64,000 nucleotides of DNA, from positions 2,176,001-2,240,000 of the forward strand of contig OZ218778.1 in NCBI GenBank assembly GCA_965112635.1, written 5' to 3'. Made by a program: the position numbers and the translations under genes. The notes under the pieces are model-generated. The model was not told where the DNA came from. It saw nothing but the letters and a program-made list of their open reading frames with translations, and made no database searches. This DNA is from an uncultured bacterium (GTDB taxonomy: Bacteria > Oederibacteriota > Oederibacteriia > Oederibacteriales > Oederibacteriaceae). Below are positions 9,718 through 50,210 of this stretch, piece by piece (within the stretch, counting starts at the first letter, position 1; each line of letters begins with the position of its first letter).

Positions 9718-10182
9718 TTGGCAAGGATCTTATTAATGGCCTTTTTGATAACAGGAGCGATTTTCTGCCTCTGCCAAATGGCTCAGGCGCAGGACACTTC
9801 GACCGCTACGGCAACAGCGACCTCTACTGAAACCCCGACTTTTACTGCCACTTCCACTGTGACAATCGTCCCGACTCCTTTGCCCACCCAGATTCCAGTA
9901 TCTTTAGACCAGGTTAGGGTCTATCCAAACATTATTACAAATTTCCAGCCTGGACAAAGTCGCGTGACTGTTGATCAGCTTCCCATCCAATGTGAGATTA
10001 CTGTATATAACATTAATTGGGATAAGATATTTTCTTTTTCCACCTCTGATGCTACTAATGGTAACGTGCGTTGGTTTCTCCAAAATATGAACGGTTCTTA
10101 TGTTGCTTCTGGTCTCTATTTCATTGCTTTAACAGATGGTCGAGGAGATCGGAAAATCAAGAAACTAATTTTAGCGAGATGA
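9718..10182 (+). CDS. Small secreted protein: signal peptide + Thr/Pro linker + T9SS-type C-terminal sorting-like domain
   Basis: GGAGG then TTG at 9718; signal peptide ending AQA; TSTATATATSTETPT linker; VYPNIITN...ITVYNI...W.LQN.NG.YVASGLYFI...KIKKLILAR. Confidence 0.75.
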   Translation: MARILLMAFLITGAIFCLCQMAQAQDTSTATATATSTETPTFTATSTVTIVPTPLPTQIPVSLDQVRVYPNIITNFQPGQSRVTVDQLPIQCEITVYNINWDKIFSFSTSDATNGNVRWFLQNMNGSYVASGLYFIALTDGRGDRKIKKLILAR

Positions 10183-10199
10183 ACAAAGGAATTAACGCG

Positions 10200-11135
10200 A
10201 TGGGGAAGAAAAGCCTGCTTTTTTATTTATGCTTTGTATTGTTTTTTGTAGATCAAAATGCCTTTTGTGCGGATCCGGGTACAACAATAGCGCCTTTTCT
10301 GAAGATTGGAGTAGGCGCAAGGGCCACTGGAATGGGTGAAGCGTTTACTGCCGTCGCTGACGACGTGGATGCCATTTTTTGGAATCCAGCCGGCTTGCCT
10401 TCTCTAGATAAACAACAAGCTACCTATATGCGGAATGCTTGGGGACAGGATGTTTATATGGACCATTTTGCCTATGCTAATCCGTTAGGCCATTACGGCG
10501 TTCTGGGGGGTTCCCTCAATTATCTGTGGCTGCCAAGTTTTGAGGCGACTTCCGATAATATGCCGAATGGAACTGGTGAAAATCTGTCTGTTTATAACCT
10601 TGCGGTTACCATTAGTTATGGCTATCAGTTTTTCCCGGAACATAACCTGGGAATTAATTTCAAGATAATCCAAATGGAGTTGGGTCCCTACAACGCCACA
10701 GGATGGGCAATCGACCTGGGTTACCTGTATAAGCCCTATTTATTTCCTTCTTTGCAGCTTGGAGCCACAGTGGAAAATCTAGGTCCTGATGTGCAATTCA
10801 TCTCTGATCTGGAGCGCCTCCCTTTGTTAAGCAGGTGGGGAGCCTATTATAAGTTGTTCAAGGGAGATGAACATCGATTAGGTTTGGCTTCTGACCTAGT
10901 TGCGGGCGTGGAGATCGATCCCTACCTTAGCATGGGTATGGAGTATTGGTATAAAGATACAATCGCTTTGCGTTTAGGATATAAAGCCCAGGAGTATTCT
11001 CCAGGAATAACCCTTGGAATAGGATTGAGAAATTTTGAAGAAAATTTTATAGCCGGTATTGATTATTCATTCGTCAATGAAGACAGTCAGGGCTTGTCCG
11101 GAGCAAACCGTTTCTCAGTAATTTCAGAATTTTAA
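10200..11135 (+). CDS. PorV/PorQ-family outer-membrane beta-barrel
   Basis: Signal peptide; APFLKIGVGARATGMGEAFTAVADD..AIFWNPAGL; ends in aromatic F. Alternative start at 10179. Confidence 0.85.
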   Translation: MGKKSLLFYLCFVLFFVDQNAFCADPGTTIAPFLKIGVGARATGMGEAFTAVADDVDAIFWNPAGLPSLDKQQATYMRNAWGQDVYMDHFAYANPLGHYGVLGGSLNYLWLPSFEATSDNMPNGTGENLSVYNLAVTISYGYQFFPEHNLGINFKIIQMELGPYNATGWAIDLGYLYKPYLFPSLQLGATVENLGPDVQFISDLERLPLLSRWGAYYKLFKGDEHRLGLASDLVAGVEIDPYLSMGMEYWYKDTIALRLGYKAQEYSPGITLGIGLRNFEENFIAGIDYSFVNEDSQGLSGANRFSVISEF

Positions 11136-35839: not shown

Positions 35840-36775
35840 GTGAATAAATTTAGATTGATAGTCCTTTTAGCGGGGTTGTTCTTAGTCCCAGGGAACCTAC
35901 TGGCCCTTGGGATAGGCGAGACCGGCGCCCCTTTCTTAAAAATAGGAGTTGGCGCTAGAGCTGCCAGCATGGGTGAAGCCTACACGGCCGCGGCGGATGA
36001 CGTCACATCGCTTTACTGGAACCCAGCCGGCCTTTCTTTTTTGCAGGACCGTCAAGCAATATTTATGCATGACATATGGGGCGAGCAGGTTTATCTGGAT
36101 TATCTAGCCTATGCACAGACAATAGGGAATGATGACGCTCTGGGAGCCTCGGCAACCTATTTTTGGATGTCTCCCGTTGACGTCAACGATGATTCAGGAA
36201 AACTTACGGGACAGACCTGGAGCGTTTATGATATCTGCGGGACCCTGGGGTATTCACGGAAATTAGGGGACAAGTTCAGCCTGGGGATTACCGCAAAATA
36301 TATCCAGGACCAGCTGGGGACCTTTCAAAGCATAGGGTTCGCCGGGGATTTTGGACTTCTCTGCAAGATTATCTCAGACCCAGATGTCAGAATAGGCGCG
36401 GTCATCCAAAATATTGGCACCCCGATTCAATTTATCAGCGCCTCAAGTGTTCTACCTTTGGTCGGCAAAGTGGGCGCCTACAGTCTGATTTACCGTGACG
36501 CGGATAATGCCGTCGGGATCGCGGCGGATATGGTGGTACCTAACGATAATTATATTTACGGTGATTACGGTTTGGAATATTCGTTACAAAACGTTCTTAT
36601 TTTCCGAGGAGGATACATGAGCAGGCCCGATGCTCCTTCGCTGAGCCTGGGGGTAGGCATCAAACAGGCCACGGAGGACTTCATGGCGGAGTTGGATTAT
36701 TCCTTCACCAGTCAAAATGCCACCTCGCAAGGGATGGGTGCCATTCACAGGATCTCCCTGCTATACGGTTTTTAA
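35840..36775 (+). CDS. PorV/PorQ-family outer-membrane beta-barrel (paralog of 10200..11135)
   Basis: Signal peptide; APFLKIGVGARAASMGEAYTAAADDVTSLYWNPAGL; terminal F. Confidence 0.85.
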   Translation: MNKFRLIVLLAGLFLVPGNLLALGIGETGAPFLKIGVGARAASMGEAYTAAADDVTSLYWNPAGLSFLQDRQAIFMHDIWGEQVYLDYLAYAQTIGNDDALGASATYFWMSPVDVNDDSGKLTGQTWSVYDICGTLGYSRKLGDKFSLGITAKYIQDQLGTFQSIGFAGDFGLLCKIISDPDVRIGAVIQNIGTPIQFISASSVLPLVGKVGAYSLIYRDADNAVGIAADMVVPNDNYIYGDYGLEYSLQNVLIFRGGYMSRPDAPSLSLGVGIKQATEDFMAELDYSFTSQNATSQGMGAIHRISLLYGF

Positions 36776-41833: not shown

Positions 41834-42409
41834 ATGCCCAAGACTGTTTACAACAAGCAATTAGCCGCCAAAATATCCGGTTGGCTTTCCGATAACCTCA
41901 CCAGGAAAAAATACGTCCACTCCCTCAATGTAGGGATATTGTCCAAGACCCTGGCGGTCAATTACGGGCTGGATCCAATACAAGCTCATATTGCGGGCTT
42001 GCTCCATGACGCCGGGTATTGCCGGAAAAACGGAAATTGGTTCAAGAAAATGAAAAAGGAAGGTTTTCCTTTCATCGGACTGGAACAAAACAACCGCGGC
42101 TTGCGCCATGCGGCCATCAGTTATGAGATAGCCCGGAAAAGATTCAATATAAGCGATAAAGCGGTCTTGGATGCCATCCGCCACCACAGCACAGGCCGGC
42201 CCTCTATGTCCAAGCTGGAAAAGATCGTTTATGTGTCCGATTATTCCGAGCCGTTCCGAAAATATCCAGATGTGGATATGATCAGGACGCTGTCCTTTGA
42301 CAACCTGGACAGGGCAGCCAAAAAGACTTTGCTCCACAAGACAGCCTATTTGAAAAAAAATAAATTGCCCGTTGATCCAAGGTCCTTATGCTGGCTCAAA
42401 AATATTTAA
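41834..42409 (+). CDS. yqeK: YqeK-like HD-domain Ap4A hydrolase
   Basis: YVHS, AGLLHD, H, AIRHHSTG, YVSDYSEP. Confidence 0.8.
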   Translation: MPKTVYNKQLAAKISGWLSDNLTRKKYVHSLNVGILSKTLAVNYGLDPIQAHIAGLLHDAGYCRKNGNWFKKMKKEGFPFIGLEQNNRGLRHAAISYEIARKRFNISDKAVLDAIRHHSTGRPSMSKLEKIVYVSDYSEPFRKYPDVDMIRTLSFDNLDRAAKKTLLHKTAYLKKNKLPVDPRSLCWLKNI

Positions 42410-43524
42410 GGCTTTTCATATTTTTTGTAATCCTTGGTGTTTTTTTCTGGGCGTGCCATTTCCTCAGCGTGACTATCCCGGTCTTGTTGCTGGGCACGGA
42501 TTTTGACGATAATTCCCAGCACACTGACACTATGATCCTAGCCGAATTTCAGCCCTTTACACGACAGATCCATTTGTTGTCCATTCCGCGGGACACCTTG
42601 GTCTCCATTCCGGGTGCCGGCTATGCCAAGGCCAACTACGCTTATGCTTACGGTTTCAGCATAGGCAGGACGCCAAAGGCTGCCCAGTTGACCTTGCAGA
42701 CCACTGATGACCTACTGGGCAAAAAGATCTTTTTCTATATCCACCTCAATTACAAAAGCTTTATAGGCCTGGTGGATTCCTTGGGAGGGGTCTATATCAA
42801 CATCGACAGACCGATGGATTATGAAGACCACGCCAACAAGCTTTACATCCACCTAAAGCCGGGATACCAATACCTGTCCGGTATGGACTCCCTCAAATAT
42901 GTCAGGTTTAGGGCGGATGGCAAGGGAGATATCGGCAGGTTGAAACGCCAGCAATTATTCTTAAAAGCTTTATGGGGCAGGGTGGGCAGACCCCTTGTGA
43001 TCTTCGGGCTGCCAGCCACCCTCTTTGATCTTACCTCACAGATGGATTCAAATTTGTCGGTTTTTGATGTTTTATGGTTGATGAAAAAGTGCGCGCTAGT
43101 CTCGTTCCAGAAGGTTGATTCCGCGACCCTGATTGGAGAGCCTTTATGGCTCCACGGTGTCTCCTATTGGAAAGCCACCAGCAATGCCTCAGCGCTACCG
43201 GTAGCAGCCAACAAGAATAAGACGGCACCCGTTCAGCAATACAAGGCCGAGATATGGAACGGCTGCGGGGTAGTTAAATTGGGCAGGAAAATGCAGGCAG
43301 CCATGGCCGACCTGGACCTGGATTTTATTTTTGTAGGCAATGCAGATAATTTCCATTACAAAAAGACAAAAATACTTACCCGTTTGAAGGACAAGTCTTT
43401 TTTAAAGAAGCTCTCCAAAAAGATAAAAAGCAAGAGCATCCAATATGCTCCCCATGTTTCAAGCAGGGACGCCGACCTGGTGGTCATCATCGGCAGGGAT
43501 TGGGCGGGGAAGAGAGGCCGTTAA
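42388..43524 (+). CDS. LCP (LytR-CpsA-Psr) family protein with LytR C-terminal domain
   Basis: LLLGTD, TDTMIL, SIPRDT, YVRFR..D.GR..RQ; C-terminal WNGCG...GNADNF...DLVVIIGRD. Confidence 0.9.
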   Translation: MLAQKYLRLFIFFVILGVFFWACHFLSVTIPVLLLGTDFDDNSQHTDTMILAEFQPFTRQIHLLSIPRDTLVSIPGAGYAKANYAYAYGFSIGRTPKAAQLTLQTTDDLLGKKIFFYIHLNYKSFIGLVDSLGGVYINIDRPMDYEDHANKLYIHLKPGYQYLSGMDSLKYVRFRADGKGDIGRLKRQQLFLKALWGRVGRPLVIFGLPATLFDLTSQMDSNLSVFDVLWLMKKCALVSFQKVDSATLIGEPLWLHGVSYWKATSNASALPVAANKNKTAPVQQYKAEIWNGCGVVKLGRKMQAAMADLDLDFIFVGNADNFHYKKTKILTRLKDKSFLKKLSKKIKSKSIQYAPHVSSRDADLVVIIGRDWAGKRGR

Positions 43525-43525
43525 A

Positions 43526-44572
43526 ATGAAAAAACCAGTCGCCCTGGCCATGTTGTCCGGCGGCCTGGACAGCATGCTAGCCACCAAGATCATCCAGGAG
43601 ATGGGTATCGAGGTCAAAGCTATCAACTTTTACACAGGCTTTTGCATGATCGAGCAAAAACGGAGATTGGGTCTCAAAGACAAAAAAGGCGGTTATATCC
43701 AGAACGAAAGTTTGGCAGCCGGCGCCAACCTGTCCGTCCCTGTGGACCTTGTGGACATTTCCGCGGATTATTCCGAAGCGCTCCTCAATCCTCGTCACGG
43801 GTACGGTTCGGCTATGAACCCCTGCATCGACTGCCGCATCTACATGCTCAAAAACGCCAAAAAATTGATCCAAGAGGGCCAAGCTGATTTTGTAGTCACC
43901 GGCGAGGTAATAGGACAGCGGCCTATGTCCCAGCACTTGCGTGCGCTCAATATCATTGAGGAGGAAAGCGGGCTGCAGGGATTGATCGTCCGTCCATTGT
44001 CCGCCAAAGTATTAGCTCCCACTATTCCGGAAACCAAAGGCTGGGTCAAAAGGGAACAGATGTATGCCATCAAAGGCCGTGGCCGCAAGGAGCAGATAGC
44101 CCTGGCCCAAAAGTTTGGTATTCAAAATTACCCCCAACCAGCAGGCGGTTGTTGCCTTTTGACGGACCAGAACTTTTCTGAACGGCTCAAGGACTATTTG
44201 AACAATGAGTTTATAACTGACAAAGACCTTTCCGCGGAAAAGGTCATCCTGCTCAGGACAGGAAGGCACTTTAGGATCAACAAGAACTTGAGGATCGTGG
44301 TTTCCCGCAATGAGGCTGAATCCAGGCTTTTAGAGCCCTATAAACAGCATGGCTGGGCCTATTCCATCCCGGCTGGGCCTGGACCCCTCACAATCACCTT
44401 GGGTGAGCCTTCTTCCGGCGAGCACGAGATGATCGCCAGTATAACGGCCCGTTATAGCGACCTGAGAACGCAGGCAAAGGTCGAGGTCCTTTGCTCAGGC
44501 CATGGCCGCCAGGACAAGCTGGTTGTCCAACCCTGGACTGATGAACCTCATTTGGAAAAGATGAAGATATAG
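43526..44572 (+). CDS. PP-loop tRNA thiouridylase-like protein (MnmA/ThiI-related)
   Basis: LSGGLDS, NPCIDC, TGEVIGQRPMSQ, RPLSA, PAGGCCLL, GRHFR. Confidence 0.85.
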   Translation: MKKPVALAMLSGGLDSMLATKIIQEMGIEVKAINFYTGFCMIEQKRRLGLKDKKGGYIQNESLAAGANLSVPVDLVDISADYSEALLNPRHGYGSAMNPCIDCRIYMLKNAKKLIQEGQADFVVTGEVIGQRPMSQHLRALNIIEEESGLQGLIVRPLSAKVLAPTIPETKGWVKREQMYAIKGRGRKEQIALAQKFGIQNYPQPAGGCCLLTDQNFSERLKDYLNNEFITDKDLSAEKVILLRTGRHFRINKNLRIVVSRNEAESRLLEPYKQHGWAYSIPAGPGPLTITLGEPSSGEHEMIASITARYSDLRTQAKVEVLCSGHGRQDKLVVQPWTDEPHLEKMKI

Positions 44573-44608: not shown

Positions 44609-47600
44609 TTAGACGTTAAATGTTTGCAGGGGCATGCGTATGGTCTGGCCAGACAGGCTGTGCATGCTCAGGCGATAGTGGTAGGTTCCTGCCACGAGTT
44701 TGACAGGGCATTTCCATTCCAAACCGCTGTACTCCTTGGGATACACATTCCCCTCGATCTTATCCAGCTTATTACCTTTGAGGTCCGATATCTCAATGGT
44801 CACCAGTCCGTTCTCCAAGGCCAGGTAGTAGAACTTCACGCTGTTTTCCACGGGATGATAATAAGCAAAAATATCCCGGTTAATGTTCAGGTTGACCACG
44901 GGAGCTTCCACAAATACCTTGGATAATTTCAGTATGGGCTGATTGGGGATAGAGACCAGCAGGTCATACTCGCCTTTAAGTATTTTCCCGGAGAAATACT
45001 GGCCATTGGTGTTGGTGTTTATGGTCCGAATAAGCTGGCCTTTTTGCATCAGGTCTATCCTGGCCTGGTTCACGGGCTTGGTTCCGTACTCATCCAGCAC
45101 CCTGCCGCACACAATGGAGTATTTTTGCTTTATTTTGATGGCAACGTGGCTGGCGATCTTTCCTATGCCCTGCTGGGGGTTGTAGGAAACGATATGGAAA
45201 TACCAGTTCCCCTCGCTGATATTGTTAAAAGTTGCGTTAAAGAGCTGGGTTTTAGTGCTTTGTTCCGTGGGGATTGTTTCCGGGTTCTGGTCCAGCAGGT
45301 AATAATAGGCGTTGACCCCGTCCTTGAAGTTGGGCGCGATCCAGCTGAAGATGGGATTGTCGTTCTCGTAGCTTTCCAGGCTGTTGGGGTGGGTAGGCGA
45401 CTGGGCTTCGGGAGGCGGGGGCGTTTTGGAGATAAAAACAGGGTAATGTGCCGCGATCTCCCCGGTCAGGCCGCTGGAGGTGACCACCACCACATGGAAA
45501 TACCACTTGCCCTCCTTGACGTTGGACAGGAACAGGCTGTTTTCCAGGGTCCAGGTGCCGTCGTTGCTGGAGGGAACGGTCTTCTCGTTCTGGTCAAATT
45601 TGTAGTAGTAACCCTCGATGCCACCCACCGAGGCCGAACATCCCCATTTGAACAGGATATCGGTTTCAGCGTACCACGTATTCCGCAGCGGGTGCGTGGG
45701 AGAGAACACGATGGGCACTTTGGGCTTGTTGCTGTCGATATTGACTTTAAAGTGCGAGGTGGAGCTTAGGTTTCCGGTGATGTCTTTGGAAGCTAGGTGC
45801 AAGTACCAAGTGCCCGATTTCATGTTGGAAAGGGTCAGGTTGGTGTCCTTGGTCCACAGGGCCATGGGTGGCCGTGGGTCGGTCGAAGGAAAAGCGTCCA
45901 GGGCGTAGTAAAACCCGGTAATGCCGCCTTTGTTCTCCGGCGTGGTCCAGTTAAAAACGACCGTGTCCTCGTAGTACCATTTTTGCTGGTCCGGATGCGT
46001 GGAGGAAGTGACGGCCGGCGCCGTGGAATACTTGTCGCAAAGCGCTTTGGCCTGTTTGTTGCCCATAGTCTGCTCGTTGCCCGCCTTGTCCACGGCGTGG
46101 ATGGTGTAATAGTAGGTCTGCCCGTGCTCCAGATTGTTCGGGGAGTCCATGAACTTTTCGTCGGTCAACTTTTGGTCCTGCGAGATAAGGTCACCGGTTA
46201 GCCCCATTTCGGTGGAACGGTAGACCCTGTAGAAATGGGTGCCGCTCACCGGGTCGCTGACCTTTTCCCAGGAGAGTTCGATGTAGCCTTCAGCCAGGGA
46301 AACGGATTTGGGGTTGACCACGGGAGGCGGCGGGGTCACGTCGATGGTGGTCGTTACCAGGGCCTCGGCCTCCGGGAAATTCTCCTGGTTGCCCGCCTTG
46401 TCCCGGCCCCTGGCCCTGAAACTGTACTGGAACGCATCCATGCCGAAAAAAGTGGCCGAGGTCAGGGTGGTGTGGGTCAGCCAGTCCTGCCAGGTGCCAT
46501 TGACGCCTTCCTTGACCTGGACGTCGTAGTAGTCCACCAGCGAGAAATTGTCGTTGCTGCTCCATTGGATGGTAAAGGCCAGGGAACGCTGGAAGTTGCC
46601 CAGGGGATGCACGGTCGTGTGGGGCGCCAAAAGGTCCAGGCAGACCTTGTGGTGGCTGGCCTGGCTCAGGTTGTCCGTGTTGTCGACCGCGCAAAGGTGG
46701 AAATAATATAGGCCTTCCTTGTCCGCCCTGACCGTGGCGCTGGTGTCCGGGGTAAAGATGCCGTTCTCCTGGGTCGGCACGGTCTGGGGATGGTTGTCCA
46801 GGGAATAATAGAAACCCTTGATGCCGGACAAGTCCTCCGGCATGGTCCATTTCATCCTGATCTCCGGGTCGGAATACCAGCGGCCCTGGTCGGGATGCGA
46901 ATCCGACAGGAGGCTGGCGGACTGGCACTGGGTGTCGATATTGAACCGGAAGTGGACGACTTCGCTCTTGTTGCCCGCCTGGTCTTTGCTCACCAGGTGG
47001 AAATACCATATTCCGTCCCGCAGGGCCGTGAGCTGGATCTCGGATTTGAGGGCCCACAGGCTGGTCTCTTCCACCGGCACGGTGTCAGGATTGGAGTCCC
47101 AGCAGTAGAGGTAGCCCACCACGCTGGACAGGCTCACTGCTTCGCTCCATTTCAGGAGCGGACGGGTCTCGCTGTACCACTGGCCGGGTTCGGGGTGCGT
47201 GGGGGAGAATATCTTTGGCGGCGTGACGCTGGTGGAGATCTGGATCTTGTAGTGGAACGGCAGCTTGCTGAGGTTACCCGCGAAATCGGCGCTGGTGATG
47301 TGGAAATACCAGGTCCCCTCGCTCAGGTTGTCGAATTTGATTTCGGTCCCTTCTAGAAAATCAGCCGTGGCCGGGTCAGGCACCGTGTCTTTTTCCTGGT
47401 CCAGGCAGGTGTAGTAGCCCTTGATCCCGGATAGGTCCGGAGGGCAAAGCCAGGTCAAGACCGCTTCGGTCTGGCGGGACCAGTCGTTTTCGCTGGGATG
47501 GGTCATGGAGGTCACGGTCGGTGCTAGGGCCACGGTGTCGATATTGATCTGATAATGGGCAGGTTCGCTCACGTTATCGGCCATATCCTTGGCCGCCAGG

Positions 47601-50143
47601 TGGAAATACCAGGACCCGTCGTTCATGTCCTGAAAACTGGCGCTGGTACCCGTGGTCCAGACGCTGGTGGTGGCGTGGGGGATGGTCTGAGGGTTCTGGT
47701 CGAACGCAAAATAGTACCCCGCGATGCCGGACAGGTCCTCAGGTGCGTCCCATTCAAAGACCGACTTGGTCTCCGTGTACCAGGCCAGGTTGTCAGGGTG
47801 CGTGGGCGAATATATCTTGGGCGTATCCACGTGCGTGTCGATACGGACAGGCAGGGTCACGGCAGGGCTCACGCATCCGGCCTGGCTCTGCACCATCACA
47901 TGGAAATACCAAACGCTGTCCTCTTTCTCGCCGAAGTTGATGGTCTGGTTGTTGGTCCAGATCCCCTTGCTCGGTTTAAAATCAAAATCCTGCTGCTGGT
48001 TGAGCTGGTAGAAACAACCGCGGATGCCCGACTTGGACCTGGCCGACTGCCAGTGCACCACAGGCTGGTTATGGCTGTACCATTTCTTGGGGTCCTGATG
48101 CGTCAGAGAGCTTACCGTGGGCTGACCTACCGTCAGGTCAATGCACACGCCGTAGTGGGCGGGTTCGCTCAGGTTGTTGGCCTTGTCCTTGGCTACGACG
48201 TGCATGTGCCAGATGCCGTCCTCGATGTTCTTGAACTGGAACCCGGTCTGGGTGGTCCAGATGGAGTTCCTCTCGTCCGGGACCGTATCGCGATTCTTGT
48301 CCAGACAGAGGTAGTAGCCCTCGATCCCGGAAAGGTCGTGAGGGGTGGCCCAGGTGAACTGCGGCTGGTTGTGGCTGTACCACTCCTGCTGGTCCGGGTG
48401 TGAAGGCGAGTTGATGACCGGGATAGGCGCGACGGTGTCGACCTTGATCTGGTAGTGGCAGCAGGTGTCAGCCATGTTGCCCGAGGTGTCTTTGGGTCTT
48501 AGGTGGAAATACCAGACGCCGTCGGCGATGTCGCGGAAGATATGGTTGTTCTTTTTGGTAAAATGCGCTTCCTCCATGTCCGGGATGGTGTCCGAGAAGG
48601 CGTCCAGGATGTAGTAGTGGCCGTCGATCTCAGACGAGTTTTCCCACTGGAACATAAAGTCACGGTGGTTGGACCAGCCGTCGGCCGAGAGCAGGTTGGG
48701 GGAACTGATTTTAGGCAGGACCGGGGTCTTGGTGGTGAAACTGCCTTCCTTGACCTCCTGGAACGAGCCGCCGGTCAAGGAACTGACCAGTCTATAATGG
48801 TAGGTCGTGTTGGACTTGAGGTCCCCTAGGGCCACCGCATGCTTGTAGGTATCGGTCTGGTCCGTGACCATGCGGTCCAGCAGGCCGCTGGTACCGTACT
48901 GTACGATGGTCGGGGCAGGTTCCGTGGTGGTCCAGTTCAGAGTAGCCGAACAGGAGGTCAGCTTGGTGATCAGGGGCTCGGACATCTCCACGGGCGAGGG
49001 GCTGTCCGAAAAACCGGATTTGTAGAGCTTGCCGGAGTTTTCCGTGGCCACGTAGAGCCGGCGGCCGTAGACCGCCATGCTGCGGACCCCATCGTCGGGC
49101 AGAGTAAAGGCCGTCTCCCATTCCTCGCCGTTGCTGGTCTTGTAGACTTTGCCCTTATCGCCGGTGCCGGCGTAGAGCGTGTTGTTGAAGGAAGTGAAGC
49201 AAAAAAAGTTGATGTCCTCCGAACTGCTGAAGCACGAGCTCCAGGTTTTGCCGTTGCCGGAGCAGAAGACCGCGCCGCCGGCAACCTTGTTGCTGGTGCC
49301 GGCATAGATCTTGTCCCTGAAAACGTGGAAGGCCTGGACAAAGGACTGGTCGGTCTGCCAGACCTTTTCCCAGGTCTTGGCGTCGTAGGAGCGGTAGATG
49401 ATGCCGTTGGGATAGGTGCCGCAGAACAAGGCCCGCTCGAAGATCGCCAGGGAGCAGCAGCTGGCCTCGCTGGTCTCGAACACCACGGACCAGCTCTTGC
49501 CGTTAAATTGCAGGATCCTGCCGGGCGTGGACGAGGCCGCGTAGAGCTTGTCCCGGAAATGGCACAGGCTGTGGATGCGGTCCTGCTTGGTCTCGGCCAG
49601 GCAGTTCCAGGAAAGGCCGTCCTTGGTGGAATAAACCCTTCCGTAAGAATTGGTACCGGCAAAAAGCAGGGGAACCCCGTCCAGGGTGCCGGATTCCAGG
49701 CAATACACCTGAGGGGTCAAGTCTTCGGCGTTTTCAGGTTCCTTGGGCTTGTTTTTGCCGCTATTTTTCTGTTTCAGGGGGTTAAAGAACTGGGAAGTGG
49801 CTTGGGTCAGCAGGATGGTCTTCCAGGAACCAGGGTCACCGGTTTGGGAGAACATGACGCCATCCCTGTTGCTGCAACAGAAGATCTTGCCGTTAAATTC
49901 ACGCAGAGAATACAAGCAAGGATGGCTTGACTCTTGATAAACCACATCAAACGCCGGGGACGCGCTATTTTGCAGGAAAAGCTCGATGGCCCGGGAGATA
50001 TTTTGGAAGGCTTCTTTTTTGGTCTTGCCCTGGCTGACACAGCCGGGGAGCAGGGGGCACTCGGCGGTAAAGGTCTCTTTGTCAGTTTTTTTGATGGAAA
50101 TAGGAAAACTCTTTTTTACTTCCGCGGATGGCACGAAAAGCAT
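44609..50143 (-). CDS. 1844-aa multidomain protein: HicB-like N-terminus, beta-propeller, FN3/Ig-like repeats, carboxypeptidase-regulatory-like domain, degenerate CTD/FlgD-like C-terminus
   Basis: AGGAG RBS; FTAECPLLPGCVSQGKTKKEAFQNISRAIELFL; LYAGT...G.VY.S.DG..W repeats; 10 SPTHP..WY...W...SGI.GYYY.LD...WYFH repeats; GRVLD...TNTNGQY. Confidence 0.85.
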   Translation of the reverse strand: MLFVPSAEVKKSFPISIKKTDKETFTAECPLLPGCVSQGKTKKEAFQNISRAIELFLQNSASPAFDVVYQESSHPCLYSLREFNGKIFCCSNRDGVMFSQTGDPGSWKTILLTQATSQFFNPLKQKNSGKNKPKEPENAEDLTPQVYCLESGTLDGVPLLFAGTNSYGRVYSTKDGLSWNCLAETKQDRIHSLCHFRDKLYAASSTPGRILQFNGKSWSVVFETSEASCCSLAIFERALFCGTYPNGIIYRSYDAKTWEKVWQTDQSFVQAFHVFRDKIYAGTSNKVAGGAVFCSGNGKTWSSCFSSSEDINFFCFTSFNNTLYAGTGDKGKVYKTSNGEEWETAFTLPDDGVRSMAVYGRRLYVATENSGKLYKSGFSDSPSPVEMSEPLITKLTSCSATLNWTTTEPAPTIVQYGTSGLLDRMVTDQTDTYKHAVALGDLKSNTTYHYRLVSSLTGGSFQEVKEGSFTTKTPVLPKISSPNLLSADGWSNHRDFMFQWENSSEIDGHYYILDAFSDTIPDMEEAHFTKKNNHIFRDIADGVWYFHLRPKDTSGNMADTCCHYQIKVDTVAPIPVINSPSHPDQQEWYSHNQPQFTWATPHDLSGIEGYYLCLDKNRDTVPDERNSIWTTQTGFQFKNIEDGIWHMHVVAKDKANNLSEPAHYGVCIDLTVGQPTVSSLTHQDPKKWYSHNQPVVHWQSARSKSGIRGCFYQLNQQQDFDFKPSKGIWTNNQTINFGEKEDSVWYFHVMVQSQAGCVSPAVTLPVRIDTHVDTPKIYSPTHPDNLAWYTETKSVFEWDAPEDLSGIAGYYFAFDQNPQTIPHATTSVWTTGTSASFQDMNDGSWYFHLAAKDMADNVSEPAHYQINIDTVALAPTVTSMTHPSENDWSRQTEAVLTWLCPPDLSGIKGYYTCLDQEKDTVPDPATADFLEGTEIKFDNLSEGTWYFHITSADFAGNLSKLPFHYKIQISTSVTPPKIFSPTHPEPGQWYSETRPLLKWSEAVSLSSVVGYLYCWDSNPDTVPVEETSLWALKSEIQLTALRDGIWYFHLVSKDQAGNKSEVVHFRFNIDTQCQSASLLSDSHPDQGRWYSDPEIRMKWTMPEDLSGIKGFYYSLDNHPQTVPTQENGIFTPDTSATVRADKEGLYYFHLCAVDNTDNLSQASHHKVCLDLLAPHTTVHPLGNFQRSLAFTIQWSSNDNFSLVDYYDVQVKEGVNGTWQDWLTHTTLTSATFFGMDAFQYSFRARGRDKAGNQENFPEAEALVTTTIDVTPPPPVVNPKSVSLAEGYIELSWEKVSDPVSGTHFYRVYRSTEMGLTGDLISQDQKLTDEKFMDSPNNLEHGQTYYYTIHAVDKAGNEQTMGNKQAKALCDKYSTAPAVTSSTHPDQQKWYYEDTVVFNWTTPENKGGITGFYYALDAFPSTDPRPPMALWTKDTNLTLSNMKSGTWYLHLASKDITGNLSSTSHFKVNIDSNKPKVPIVFSPTHPLRNTWYAETDILFKWGCSASVGGIEGYYYKFDQNEKTVPSSNDGTWTLENSLFLSNVKEGKWYFHVVVVTSSGLTGEIAAHYPVFISKTPPPPEAQSPTHPNSLESYENDNPIFSWIAPNFKDGVNAYYYLLDQNPETIPTEQSTKTQLFNATFNNISEGNWYFHIVSYNPQQGIGKIASHVAIKIKQKYSIVCGRVLDEYGTKPVNQARIDLMQKGQLIRTINTNTNGQYFSGKILKGEYDLLVSIPNQPILKLSKVFVEAPVVNLNINRDIFAYYHPVENSVKFYYLALENGLVTIEISDLKGNKLDKIEGNVYPKEYSGLEWKCPVKLVAGTYHYRLSMHSLSGQTIRMPLQTFNV

Positions 50144-50181
50144 ATTGCTCCTATAAATAATTGCTTGGTTTTGAGGAACAC

Positions 50182-50210
50182 ATTTTAAAATTGTCTAGTG
50201 GTAAAGTCAA
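50182..50210 (-). promoter_or_regulatory. Sigma70-type promoter for the 1844-aa gene
   Basis: Minus strand TTGACT, 17-bp spacer, TAAAAT. Confidence 0.7.

Follow-up and report, generated by a model that had tools for sequence, protein, structure and literature searches.

A HicB/UPF0150-fold domain heads a single-copy family of giant surface-type proteins that lack signal peptides in the Goldbacteria

Here, we present a computational analysis of a gene for a giant protein (P0001) encoded in a 64,000-nucleotide stretch of DNA from an uncultured bacterium (the window). The preliminary description of this gene had noted a HicB-antitoxin-like domain at the head of an otherwise extracellular-type, Ig-repeat protein. 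We find that the protein very probably represents a single-copy family, present in much of the phylum, in which a HicB fold heads a surface-type body at the position of a Sec signal, is kept by purifying selection, and does not function as an antitoxin. Our best reading is that an antitoxin fold was exapted and took over the place of the Sec signal in a surface-type protein. The further proposal that the fold was exapted as a docking handle, and that the protein takes a Sec-independent route to the envelope or is retained there, is tentative; to the whole statement, i.e., the family facts together with the docking-handle proposal, we assign a probability of roughly 0.45. Antitoxin folds are usually discussed only within toxin-antitoxin pairs. 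Here, such a fold appears to have stood fixed at the front of a 200-kDa protein, in a setting unrelated to any toxin, throughout the existence of a large part of the phylum, making it a clear case of the domestication of a part from a mobile element.

The features of the gene and its product are listed in Table 1. Upstream of the ATG, the frame is open for 17 codons only (total open frame, 1861 aa); therefore, the upstream room excludes a hidden signal peptide. At the 30 ortholog loci listed, the start codon is placed 26-34 codons ahead of the LPG motif. The ribosome-binding site and the sigma-70 promoter that had been assigned to the gene were both recovered, the latter as a consensus match only. 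PADLOC returned no match. The two public DNA sequencing runs sharing words with the sequence came from peat (0.47 of words) and freshwater sediment (0.04), and no RNA run was among them.

Table 1. Features of the giant gene and its product in window coordinates
Feature	Residues	Position	Strand	Basis
Whole ORF, 1844 aa plus stop (P0001)	1-1844	44609..50143	(-)	ORF translation; orthologs in relatives
Shine-Dalgarno-like AGGAG, 4 nt from ATG		50148..50152	(-)	Read from sequence
Sigma-70-like promoter TTGACT-17-TAAAAT		50182..50210	(-)	10/12 positions; consensus match only
HicB/UPF0150-fold domain, beta-beta-beta-alpha	13-60	49964..50107	(-)	Pfam, PHROGs, PDB profile, Foldseek
Junction without flexible linker; strand 65-70 with invariant F65	61-76	49916..49963	(-)	Alignment, models
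Beta-propeller, BNR/sortilin/DUF6242 type; disordered insert aa 123-139	77-385	48989..49915	(-)	Pfam, model, Foldseek, ESM Atlas
FN3-like domain (Pur_ac_phosph_N match)	386-475	48719..48988	(-)	Pfam
Seven ~100-aa Ig-like repeats (S-x-T-H-P ... W-Y-F-H)	476-1175	46619..48718	(-)	Pfam, NCBIfam, periodicity
Middle block, Big_3_2-like and fn3 matches	1176-1365	46049..46618	(-)	Pfam, PHROGs
Three further ~100-aa repeats	1366-1672	45128..46048	(-)	Pfam, NCBIfam, periodicity
CarboxypepD_reg/transthyretin-like domain	1673-1755	44879..45127	(-)	Pfam
C-terminal beta-sandwich; homology to Por_Secre_tail (CTD) domains of the same genome	1756-1844	44612..44878	(-)	hhalign

As the preliminary description had it, the N terminus follows the HicB pattern, and four lines of comparison agree on this. 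With aa 1-68 alone as the query, the Pfam family HicB_lk_antitox (PF15919) matched at 32.5 bits (E = 1.1e-7; cut-off, 27), and with the whole protein as the query at 26.8 bits, slightly below this cut-off; UPF0150 (PF21748) scored 25.2 bits, below its cut-off of 27.3, and NCBIfam had no match for the domain. PHROG 497 ("HicB-like") matched with an E value of 1.4e-9. A profile of the N-domains of 37 orthologs, in which Pfam recognizes UPF0150 in 19 and HicB_lk in 11, matched TTHA0281 (2dsy; E = 1.4e-4) and HicB (6g1c; E = 3.4e-4) in the PDB. In the AF2 model, a beta-beta-beta-alpha arrangement spans aa 16-60, and the top Foldseek matches were the N-domain of Burkholderia pseudomallei HicB (E = 1.7e-3; TM, 0.56), TTHA0281, and HicB3. 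Small HicB-like ORFs of the same phylum share 40-52% identity with the fused N-domain, and we consider the predicted fold to be that of the phylum's ordinary small hicB antitoxins. The dN/dS ratio of the N-domain is 0.045-0.37 in pairs without the window sequence, which points to purifying selection on the fused domain.

Searching related genomes showed that the fusion is not a one-off. An ortholog is present in 23 of 40 relatives. Across the phylum, the genome records of which are titled candidate division FCPU426 or Candidatus Goldiibacteriota (Goldbacteria), 64 of 98 other species have one in their genome. In 61 of these 64 genomes, there is one match, which starts at query residue 6-29 and continues into the propeller (in G085, it stops after residue 210); the remaining three (G080, G064, and G062, one in-frame TGA) are split or interrupted. 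On public contigs, the domain is in frame at 35 of 37 loci, lies in another frame at one (L050), and is cut by the contig end at the last (L052). In 33 full-length members, gaps make up a fraction of at most 0.02 in all 50-aa bins except one, and the family is single-copy and collinear over its full length in the phylum clades where it occurs. Altogether, the fusion is a family trait: in every member with a readable N terminus, the HicB/UPF0150 fold comes first in a protein of ~1850 aa.

These observations also bear on the concern that the fusion is an artefact or accident, i.e., that the assembly or the start codon is wrong or that a hicB gene has recently, and neutrally, been read through into the next gene. 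In the case of the window itself, the public contigs found are short and none bridges positions 49940-50170, so that the organism's own reads give the junction no independent coverage, and frameshifts split a few orthologs in draft assemblies (L050, G064, and G080). However, the window genome is one 2.88-Mb contig, an identical junction without an indel recurs in dozens of independent assemblies, the N-domain is under purifying selection, and there is neither a downstream start followed by a signal peptide nor a hydrophobic stretch anywhere in the protein. For the family, an artefact is refuted, and we regard its probability as negligible.

A search of a protein library with the N-domain profile returned 10,913 proteins at E <= 1e-3. 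Leaving aside members of the family and a small number of long proteins, the best 150 of these were proteins of 60-200 aa, with E values of about 1e-18 to 1e-11. Of the long proteins in the best 150, 8 were scanned and 5 read: P0103, P0067, and P0073 belong to the family, whole or as fragments, and P0107, P0150, and P0157 each contain more than one HicB-like stretch. P0056 and P0061 were dropped as candidates for further fusions, their matches being spurious ones to repeats. Some members or fragments of the family are annotated as "HicB family nuclease" or "HicB family antitoxin", labels that are misleading for members of a giant-protein family. In a tree of the domain, the free topology implies 6 changes for the fused domains, and the AU test does not reject a single clade of fused domains (p = 0.397); the domain tree is too short for a single origin of the fused domains to show.

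The HicB fold raises the possibility, put forward in the preliminary description, that the N-domain binds a HicA RNase encoded at another locus and lets it go once a ligand is bound by the propeller/Ig array. In support of such a sensor-antitoxin, the domain is a true member of the HicB superfamily, the window genome contains two hicA genes, and at least one HicA match (PF07927, E <= 0.01) is found in 34 of the 64 carrier genomes. However, a search for orphan hicA genes came to nothing in the window genome, each of its two hicA genes having its own hicB directly upstream. Moreover, 30 of the 64 carriers have no HicA match at this threshold, and among these 30 genomes, 12 are at least 95% and 17 at least 90% complete. 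The lack of an adjacent hicA-like ORF, noted from the start, extends much further: tblastn detected none in the window and in 520 kb of ortholog loci (best E, 0.63), none of 65 orthologs has a HicA match within 60 kb, and the nearest hicA lies 216 kb from the giant gene. In a comparison by hand in the relatives, a HicA match lies within about 250 nt of 20 of 23 free-standing HicB-like ORFs versus none of 24 giant genes. The fused domain also differs in charge, the mean net charge of the core being 0.0 in 37 fused domains and -3.9 in 85 small HicB/UPF0150 proteins, with the domain cut crudely around the motif for this comparison. Finally, the family is single-copy and collinear across clades, unlike mobile toxin-antitoxin genes, and Pfam finds no RHH or HTH match in the 1844 aa. 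Because there is no hicA in cis, nearly half of the carriers have no hicA, and a DNA-binding tail is lacking, we conclude that the fused domain does not, as far as sequence comparisons tell, work as a HicAB antitoxin. The sensor-antitoxin is largely refuted as a role of the family in general, and we consider it highly improbable.

The gene neighbourhood varies from clade to clade and provides no functional clue. In the window, the neighbours are an MBL-fold gene (a name carried over from an earlier note) and MutL (by sequence inspection); at other ortholog loci, they are genes for 2-oxoacid:ferredoxin oxidoreductase subunits together with a GNAT protein, or for MiaB, a TPR/SPOR protein, and MutS. 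In one clade, the giant gene has 4-nt overlaps with the upstream GNAT gene. Genes for a zinc-ribbon and polytopic membrane proteins, which lie downstream in one clade, had no tblastn match in the window genome.

No variable linker separates the N-domain from the propeller. In none of 10 aligned sequences does an indel interrupt the stretch from the LPG motif to the first blade, and strand 65-70 is ordered only in the AF2 model that includes the propeller. Based on this model, we suggest that strand 65-70 may be the closing strand of the propeller.

The body behind the junction turned out as first described, with the propeller, FN3 domains, ten ~100-aa repeats, and a carboxypeptidase-regulatory-like domain all found by Pfam, modelling, or periodicity. 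The AF2 model of aa 1-405 contains a propeller with 7/8 blades; Foldseek with this 405-aa model matched generic propellers only, and an ESM Atlas search retrieved BNR/sortilin-type propeller clusters only, with scores of at most 0.80. The ten repeats have a period of 100-101 aa and score as Big_13 (69.6 bits) and as OmpL47-type barrels (NF047446, 57.7 bits). The C-terminal domain, as first described, looks like a degenerate CTD: Pfam makes no call for it in the window protein, yet a profile-to-profile comparison by hhalign with the genome's own Por_Secre_tail domains gave a probability of 98.2% (E = 2.9e-14). PF18962 is present in 4 of 48 family proteins among those listed, and this CTD-like end is less conserved than any other part of the protein (identity, 0.17-0.31). 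The low conservation and the lack of a Pfam call fit a protein that no longer uses the corresponding sorting route. Cys residues are scattered throughout as reported; only C29 (88%) and C148 (97%) of the 31 are conserved, and the Cys content does not set the window protein apart from the signal-peptide proteins of the genome.

A protein that combines surface-protein parts and a CTD-type end, yet has no signal peptide in dozens of species, poses a question of cell biology. By a simple hydropathy test, the best 12-residue hydropathy within the first 45 aa is 1.13, compared with at least 2.3 in 18 of the 27 ORFs with CTD matches in the genome; two further ORFs among the 27 have a hydrophobic stretch slightly further in. 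The best 19-residue hydropathy over the whole protein is 1.03, and no membrane helix was found. Thus, the reported lack of a signal peptide holds for the window protein. None of the ortholog N termini examined has a signal peptide either; these homologs carry the HicB-fold domain instead. The nearest outgroup propeller proteins (P0007, P0008, P0010, and P0012) start with classical signal peptides, and the HicB-fold domain occupies the position that the Sec signal peptide has in these proteins.

We considered other export signals as well. A lipobox reading of L-P-G-C was dropped because the motif does not follow a hydrophobic stretch and only 52% of members have the Cys, and a double-glycine leader was dropped because no conserved GG is visible in the ortholog N termini. 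The RTX motif GGxGxD is absent from all 34 family proteins searched. We found no secretion genes linked to the giant gene: there are no genes for an ABC transporter, MFP, or OMF among the window neighbours or among the nine neighbour proteins scanned with Pfam at two ortholog loci. PorV-like matches number 37 in the genome, all far under the equivalog cut-off, and the nearest of these genes is 8 kb away, none adjoining the giant gene. SprA_N has one weak match in the genome (E = 1.4e-4), and GldM_1st has none. An 8344-aa ORF elsewhere in the genome was dismissed as a second giant lacking a signal peptide, given that its reading runs on upstream into a 3183-aa ORF.

Does the protein leave the cytoplasm at all? 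The signal peptide may have been lost and the protein kept inside in a new role as a ruler or scaffold, with the HicB fold as its docking or oligomerizing end, in the manner of titin, the eukaryotic ruler/scaffold built of Ig/FN3 domains. The members examined have no signal peptide, membrane helix, or RTX motif, and their N-domain belongs to a family of cytoplasmic proteins; the gene sits next to housekeeping genes, with the GNAT overlaps in one clade; length and domain number are fixed, with the gap fractions given above holding over 1844 aa; and the CTD-like end is the most degenerate part. All of these fit a cytoplasmic scaffold. However, the domain types that follow the N-domain are all ones usually seen in secreted or surface proteins, signal peptides are present in the nearest outgroups, and the C-terminal domain is still recognizable as the CTD type of the genome. 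We are not aware of any cytoplasmic protein from bacteria that contains an array of at least 10 Ig-like domains. On balance, we regard a cytoplasmic scaffold as unlikely, although a serious alternative. Concerning export, it can also be observed that the housekeeping neighbours, the cytoplasmic HicB family, and the fixed repeat number fit a cytoplasmic protein equally well; the number of repeats often varies in adhesins.

Returning to the exapted fold in place of the Sec signal, we speculate on the following mechanism. A HicB antitoxin fold would have been exapted as a protein-docking handle. The giant protein would be made and partly folded in the cytoplasm and would reach, or be held at, the envelope by a Sec-independent route. 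In this process, the quick-folding HicB fold, fixed on the propeller, might be gripped by a conserved partner, or it might stop and anchor the chain. The present role of the N-domain, whether as a docking, anchoring, or export handle or as part of a cytoplasmic scaffold, is what we infer rather than observe. The alternative given in the preliminary description, in which the HicB fold acts as a non-canonical tag for export or for a chaperone, agrees with all findings, as does a tag for anchoring, and forms part of our best reading. The more specific claim, that the HicB fold is a new N-terminal targeting or retention signal that replaces the Sec peptide of a CTD-bearing Ig-repeat giant at the FCPU426/Goldbacteria envelope, is rather doubtful. 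If the protein is exported, the N-domain would mark a route or a means of anchoring that has not been described so far; otherwise, a long Ig/FN3 array would be at work inside a bacterial cell, which to our knowledge is very unusual.

Several known systems resemble the giant protein in part. Type IX secretion cargo proteins have a similar domain repertoire and a C-terminal beta-sandwich, and the genome holds the 27 CTD matches and many PorV-like barrels; however, type IX cargo needs a signal peptide to reach the periplasm, and the giant protein has neither a signal peptide nor an adjacent PorV-like gene. In the case of the OmpL47-type multi-barrel surface proteins of Leptospira and Big_13, the likeness lies in the ~100-aa repeats, which score as both; the OmpL47 equivalog model itself scores only 45.7 bits against a cut-off of 250 bits, and the overall architecture differs. 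LapA-type adhesins of type 1 secretion are, according to PMC10990149, giant, repeat-built proteins without a signal peptide in which a small folded N-terminal domain, the retention module that plugs the outer-membrane channel, is functionally essential; they are a precedent for the anchoring proposed above. The likeness to the giant protein consists of the giant repeats, the lack of a signal peptide, and the small folded N-domain. In contrast, the LapA-type retention module is described there as beta-helical, a fold different from that of our N-domain, and the RTX motif and the ABC/MFP/OMF genes are missing from the family proteins and neighbours examined, respectively.

The closest relationships are those of the N-domain itself. 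TTHA0281 (2dsy) is its best PDB profile match, and Pfam assigns more of the orthologous N-domains to UPF0150 than to HicB_lk; however, UPF0150/TTHA0281-like proteins are free proteins of 60-90 aa, whereas the domain described here heads a giant protein. With HicB of B. pseudomallei (6g1c/6g1n/6g26) and HicB3 of Yersinia pestis (4p78/4p7d), it has a common fold and the L-P-G ... G-x-T-x-x-E-A signature (29% identity to 6g1c at the TM score given above). In PMC2701414, HicB antitoxins are described as small proteins that often carry an RHH or HTH DNA-binding domain at the C terminus, and as patchily distributed and mobile. The giant's domain, in contrast, has no hicA partner and no RHH/HTH tail, is not acidic, and is followed in the same chain by about 1780 aa of surface-type domains, in a single-copy, collinear family. 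Among the papers surveyed, which were represented mostly by titles and abstract openings, none describes a fusion of a HicB fold to a giant protein. We conclude that a HicB fold heading a giant surface-type protein is a new architecture, one that shares its first domain with the HicB antitoxins and its body with proteins of the cell surface.

The preliminary description placed a HicB-like pattern at the N-terminus of the giant protein, and this observation is confirmed and much extended here. The open reading frame (ORF) has only 17 open codons above its ATG. The HicB-likeness of residues 13-60 was scored in four ways, and the Pfam PF15919, PHROG 497, structure profile, and library profile searches all agree. 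PF15919 scored 32.5 bits on the N-domain alone (cut-off, 27) and 26.8 bits within the whole protein; the Pfam UPF0150 model scored 25.2 bits, slightly below its cut-off; a search of NCBIfam with the N-domain gave no match; and PHROG 497, annotated as "HicB-like," matched with an E value of 1.4e-9. Searched against solved structures, a profile of 37 ortholog N-domains matched TTHA0281 (1.4e-4) and HicB 6g1c (3.4e-4), and against a library of 1.84 billion proteins, the same profile matched 10,913 proteins, of which the best 150 are mostly 60-200 aa long with E values of about 1e-18 to 1e-11. In the AlphaFold model, residues 16-60 are predicted to form a beta-beta-beta-alpha fold, for which the best Foldseek match was the N-domain of the Burkholderia pseudomallei HicB (E value of 1.7e-3, TM of 0.56, and 29% identity), followed by TTHA0281, TTHA1756, and HicB3 and then by dsRNA-binding domains. 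By fold and sequence, the N-domain belongs to the HicB/UPF0150 superfamily.

Positions of the giant gene, its start signals, and other features of the window and its genome (G000:C1, the single contig of the window genome)
Feature	Position	Strand	Remark
Giant-protein ORF	44609..50143	-	1844 aa, real
AGGAG	4 nt before the giant gene's ATG	-	sequence inspection
Promoter-like TTGACT-17-TAAAAT	50210..50182	-	consensus match only
CTD and PorV-like pair in the window	9949-10170 and 10230-10898		
Two canonical TA pairs of the genome	G000:C1:1455675-1456066 and 2442318-2442660		order hicB then hicA

The fusion is a family and not an accident: it is real, old, and odd. Using residues 1-400 as the query, we found a long ortholog in 23 of 40 relatives; a search of all 98 other species genomes of the phylum gave one in 64. 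In 61 of these 64 carriers, a single match runs from query residue 6-29, inside or before the HicB fold, on into the propeller (in G085, the match stops after residue 210), while the remaining three are split or interrupted (G064, G080, and G062, the last with one in-frame TGA). Carriers occur in families f1, f2, f4, f6-f8, f10, f12, f13, f15, and f17-f23; searches of the 28 genomes of f3, f5, f9, f11, f14, and f16 gave no ortholog match. A scan of public genome contigs yielded 37 ortholog loci, whose record titles give either candidate division FCPU426 or the name Candidatus Goldiibacteriota; a few carry the label Spirochaetia or that of other taxa. The N-domain is in frame at 35 of the 37 (it lies in another frame in L050, and the contig stops short within L052), and at the loci examined, the start codon lies 26-34 codons ahead of the L-P-G motif of the N-domain. 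Over all 1844 positions, the alignment of 33 full-length members has a gap fraction of at most 0.02 in every 50-aa bin but one; therefore, the number and order of domains are fixed in the family, which is unusual among repeat adhesins. Members of one sub-clade (L047 and L048; G003, G010, G017, G060, and G061) reach 2410-2488 aa and so exceed the others by about 560-640 aa. The dN/dS ratio of the N-domain is 0.045-0.37 in pairs without the window sequence, pairs with it being saturated and uninformative, and is similar to that of the propeller; these ratios indicate purifying selection on the N-domain. The domain-only tree is too short to resolve; when built without constraint, it does not place the fused domains in one clade, but a single clade was not rejected by the AU test (p = 0.397).

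Orthologs split in two frames or with one in-frame stop (L050, L053, L040, and L042; G064, G080, and G062) may reflect errors in the draft assemblies or be true pseudogenes. The window N-domain (49964-50107) sits on a long branch of the domain tree and shares up to 48% identity over 54 columns with P0094, a free small HicB-like library protein, which exceeds the 25-35% identity to the N-domains of its own orthologs. Possible readings are that this copy is the least derived one or that the lineage has exchanged its domain.

It was proposed earlier that the protein is a sensor-antitoxin holding a distant HicA. Our data do not support this proposal. Two HicA matches were found in the window genome. 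Each follows immediately downstream of a hicB of its own, which is small and single-domain (open frame, 82-87 aa) and lacks a DNA-binding tail; therefore, there is no orphan toxin. Neither HicA matched in the 520 kb of ortholog loci or in the window (best E value, 0.63), in agreement with the earlier remark that no hicA is adjacent. Moreover, 30 of the 64 other carrier genomes lack a HicA-family match (E ≤ 0.01); the completeness of these 30 is ≥95% in 12 and ≥90% in 17. Where a carrier has both genes, they lie either on separate contigs or at a distance of over 60 kb. By contrast, of the 23 free-standing HicB-like ORFs in these genomes that the query also matched, 20 have a HicA match no more than about 250 nt away by hand comparison; two of the 20 HicA matches fall under the family cut-off. 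By a crude, motif-anchored cut, the mean net charge of the fused core is 0.0 (range, −7 to +4; n = 37) and that of small HicB/UPF0150 library proteins is −3.9 (n = 85). On average, the fused core is not acidic. The fused N-domain is probably not a working antitoxin.

The body is laid out as described previously: a 7/8-blade propeller of the BNR/sortilin/DUF6242 type; an FN3-like domain; ten repeats that recur every 100-101 aa, arranged seven then three, and score as Big_13 and as the OmpL47-type barrel; a middle block with fn3; and a CarboxypepD_reg domain near the end. Pfam makes no call on the last ~90 aa; as a family profile, they align with the genome's own Por_Secre_tail domains with an hhalign probability of 98.2% (E value of 2.9e-14). 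Only C29 and C148 of the 31 Cys residues are conserved, and no RHH or HTH domain was found in the protein.

Hydropathy analysis bears out the reported lack of a hydrophobic signal peptide and reveals no membrane helix; none of the ortholog N-termini, which might have carried a signal peptide in place of the HicB fold, is hydrophobic. By comparison, in the nearest non-family proteins sharing the propeller (P0007, P0008, P0010, and P0012), classical signal peptides directly precede it. Among the ORFs holding the 27 Por_Secre_tail matches of the window genome, the N-terminus is strongly hydrophobic in 18, and two more have such a stretch slightly further in; therefore, the organism uses a signal peptide plus a C-terminal sorting domain (CTD) in the ordinary way. 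The family is the exception, with the HicB fold occupying the expected signal-peptide position. The join is tight: from the L-P-G motif to the first blade, all 10 sequences compared are free of indels, and the strand formed by residues 65-70 (with the invariant F65) is ordered only in models containing the propeller, whose ring it may close.

Neighboring genes vary by clade and do not help to identify a mechanism; none is a secretion gene in the window or in two ortholog clades. In the window, a divergent gene previously named as MBL-fold and, by inspection, MutL are found. In one clade, 2-oxoacid:ferredoxin oxidoreductase subunits together with a GNAT are encoded upstream, and the downstream gene is for a zinc-ribbon membrane protein, neither GNAT nor zinc-ribbon neighbor being kept in the window genome; another clade has MiaB, a TPR/SPOR protein, and MutS. 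In the Goldiibacteriota-titled clade (L021, L023, L025, L027, and L032), the giant gene overlaps the stop of the upstream GNAT acetyltransferase gene by 4 nt. The gene for the zinc-ribbon single-pass membrane protein shares its first 4 nt with the end of the giant gene in L021; in L027 and L032, it begins immediately past that end. The overlaps suggest translational coupling there. Beyond the giant gene's 3' end, two plus-strand ORFs, 42388-43524 and 43445-44572, share 80 nt (43445-43524) when each is read from its first start codon; the latter probably starts further in.

Automatic annotation has already noticed the HicB domain, as several members are named "predicted RNase H-like HicB family nuclease" by JGI and one fragment "HicB family antitoxin" by NCBI. 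Our literature search found no description of a HicB-giant-protein fusion. The family raises the testable question of export or intracellular Ig arrays in an uncultured phylum. We lean slightly toward the idea that the protein exits the cytoplasm by a Sec-independent route, in which the quickly folding N-domain would serve as a handle or stopper, because both body and C-terminal domain can still be recognized as being of the exported kind. The alternative offered earlier, a non-canonical export or chaperone tag, may thus hold. The evidence is indirect, and we give nearly the same weight to the possibility of a scaffold that never leaves the cell. The PorV outer-membrane model has 37 matches in the genome, all far under the equivalog cut-off; one follows within 3 kb on the same strand after 9 of the 27 CTD matches, and the one nearest to the giant gene is 8 kb away. 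SprA_N has only a weak match in the window genome, and GldM was not found there. The CTD/PorV-like pairs look like cargo plus its own barrel outside Bacteroidota.

CTD/PorV-like regions of the window span 9949-11123 and 35918-36532 (G000:2185949-2187123 and 2211918-2212532). Outside the window, at G000:C1:29359-63974 (-), an 8344-aa ORF directly continues a 3183-aa ORF, upstream of which lies yet another, and is followed by PorV-like and other envelope-type ORFs; a single protein of >11,000 aa may be encoded here, interrupted by frameshifts or recoding.

Compared with known systems, the giant protein lacks the signal peptide of ordinary type IX secretion (T9SS) cargo. The proposed handle or stopper would resemble the module at the N-terminus of LapA-type adhesins that serves in retention (PMC10990149); however, unlike these adhesins, the giant protein has no linked transporter among the neighboring genes examined and no RTX motif (0/34 family proteins). 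HicAB systems are defined by Makarova and colleagues (PMC2701414) by a two-gene operon, proteins of small size, and a distribution that is patchy and mobile. The giant-protein family differs in all three and, by function-defining features, falls outside the HicB antitoxin family. Its fold is known, whereas the conserved, non-toxin architecture that holds it is new.
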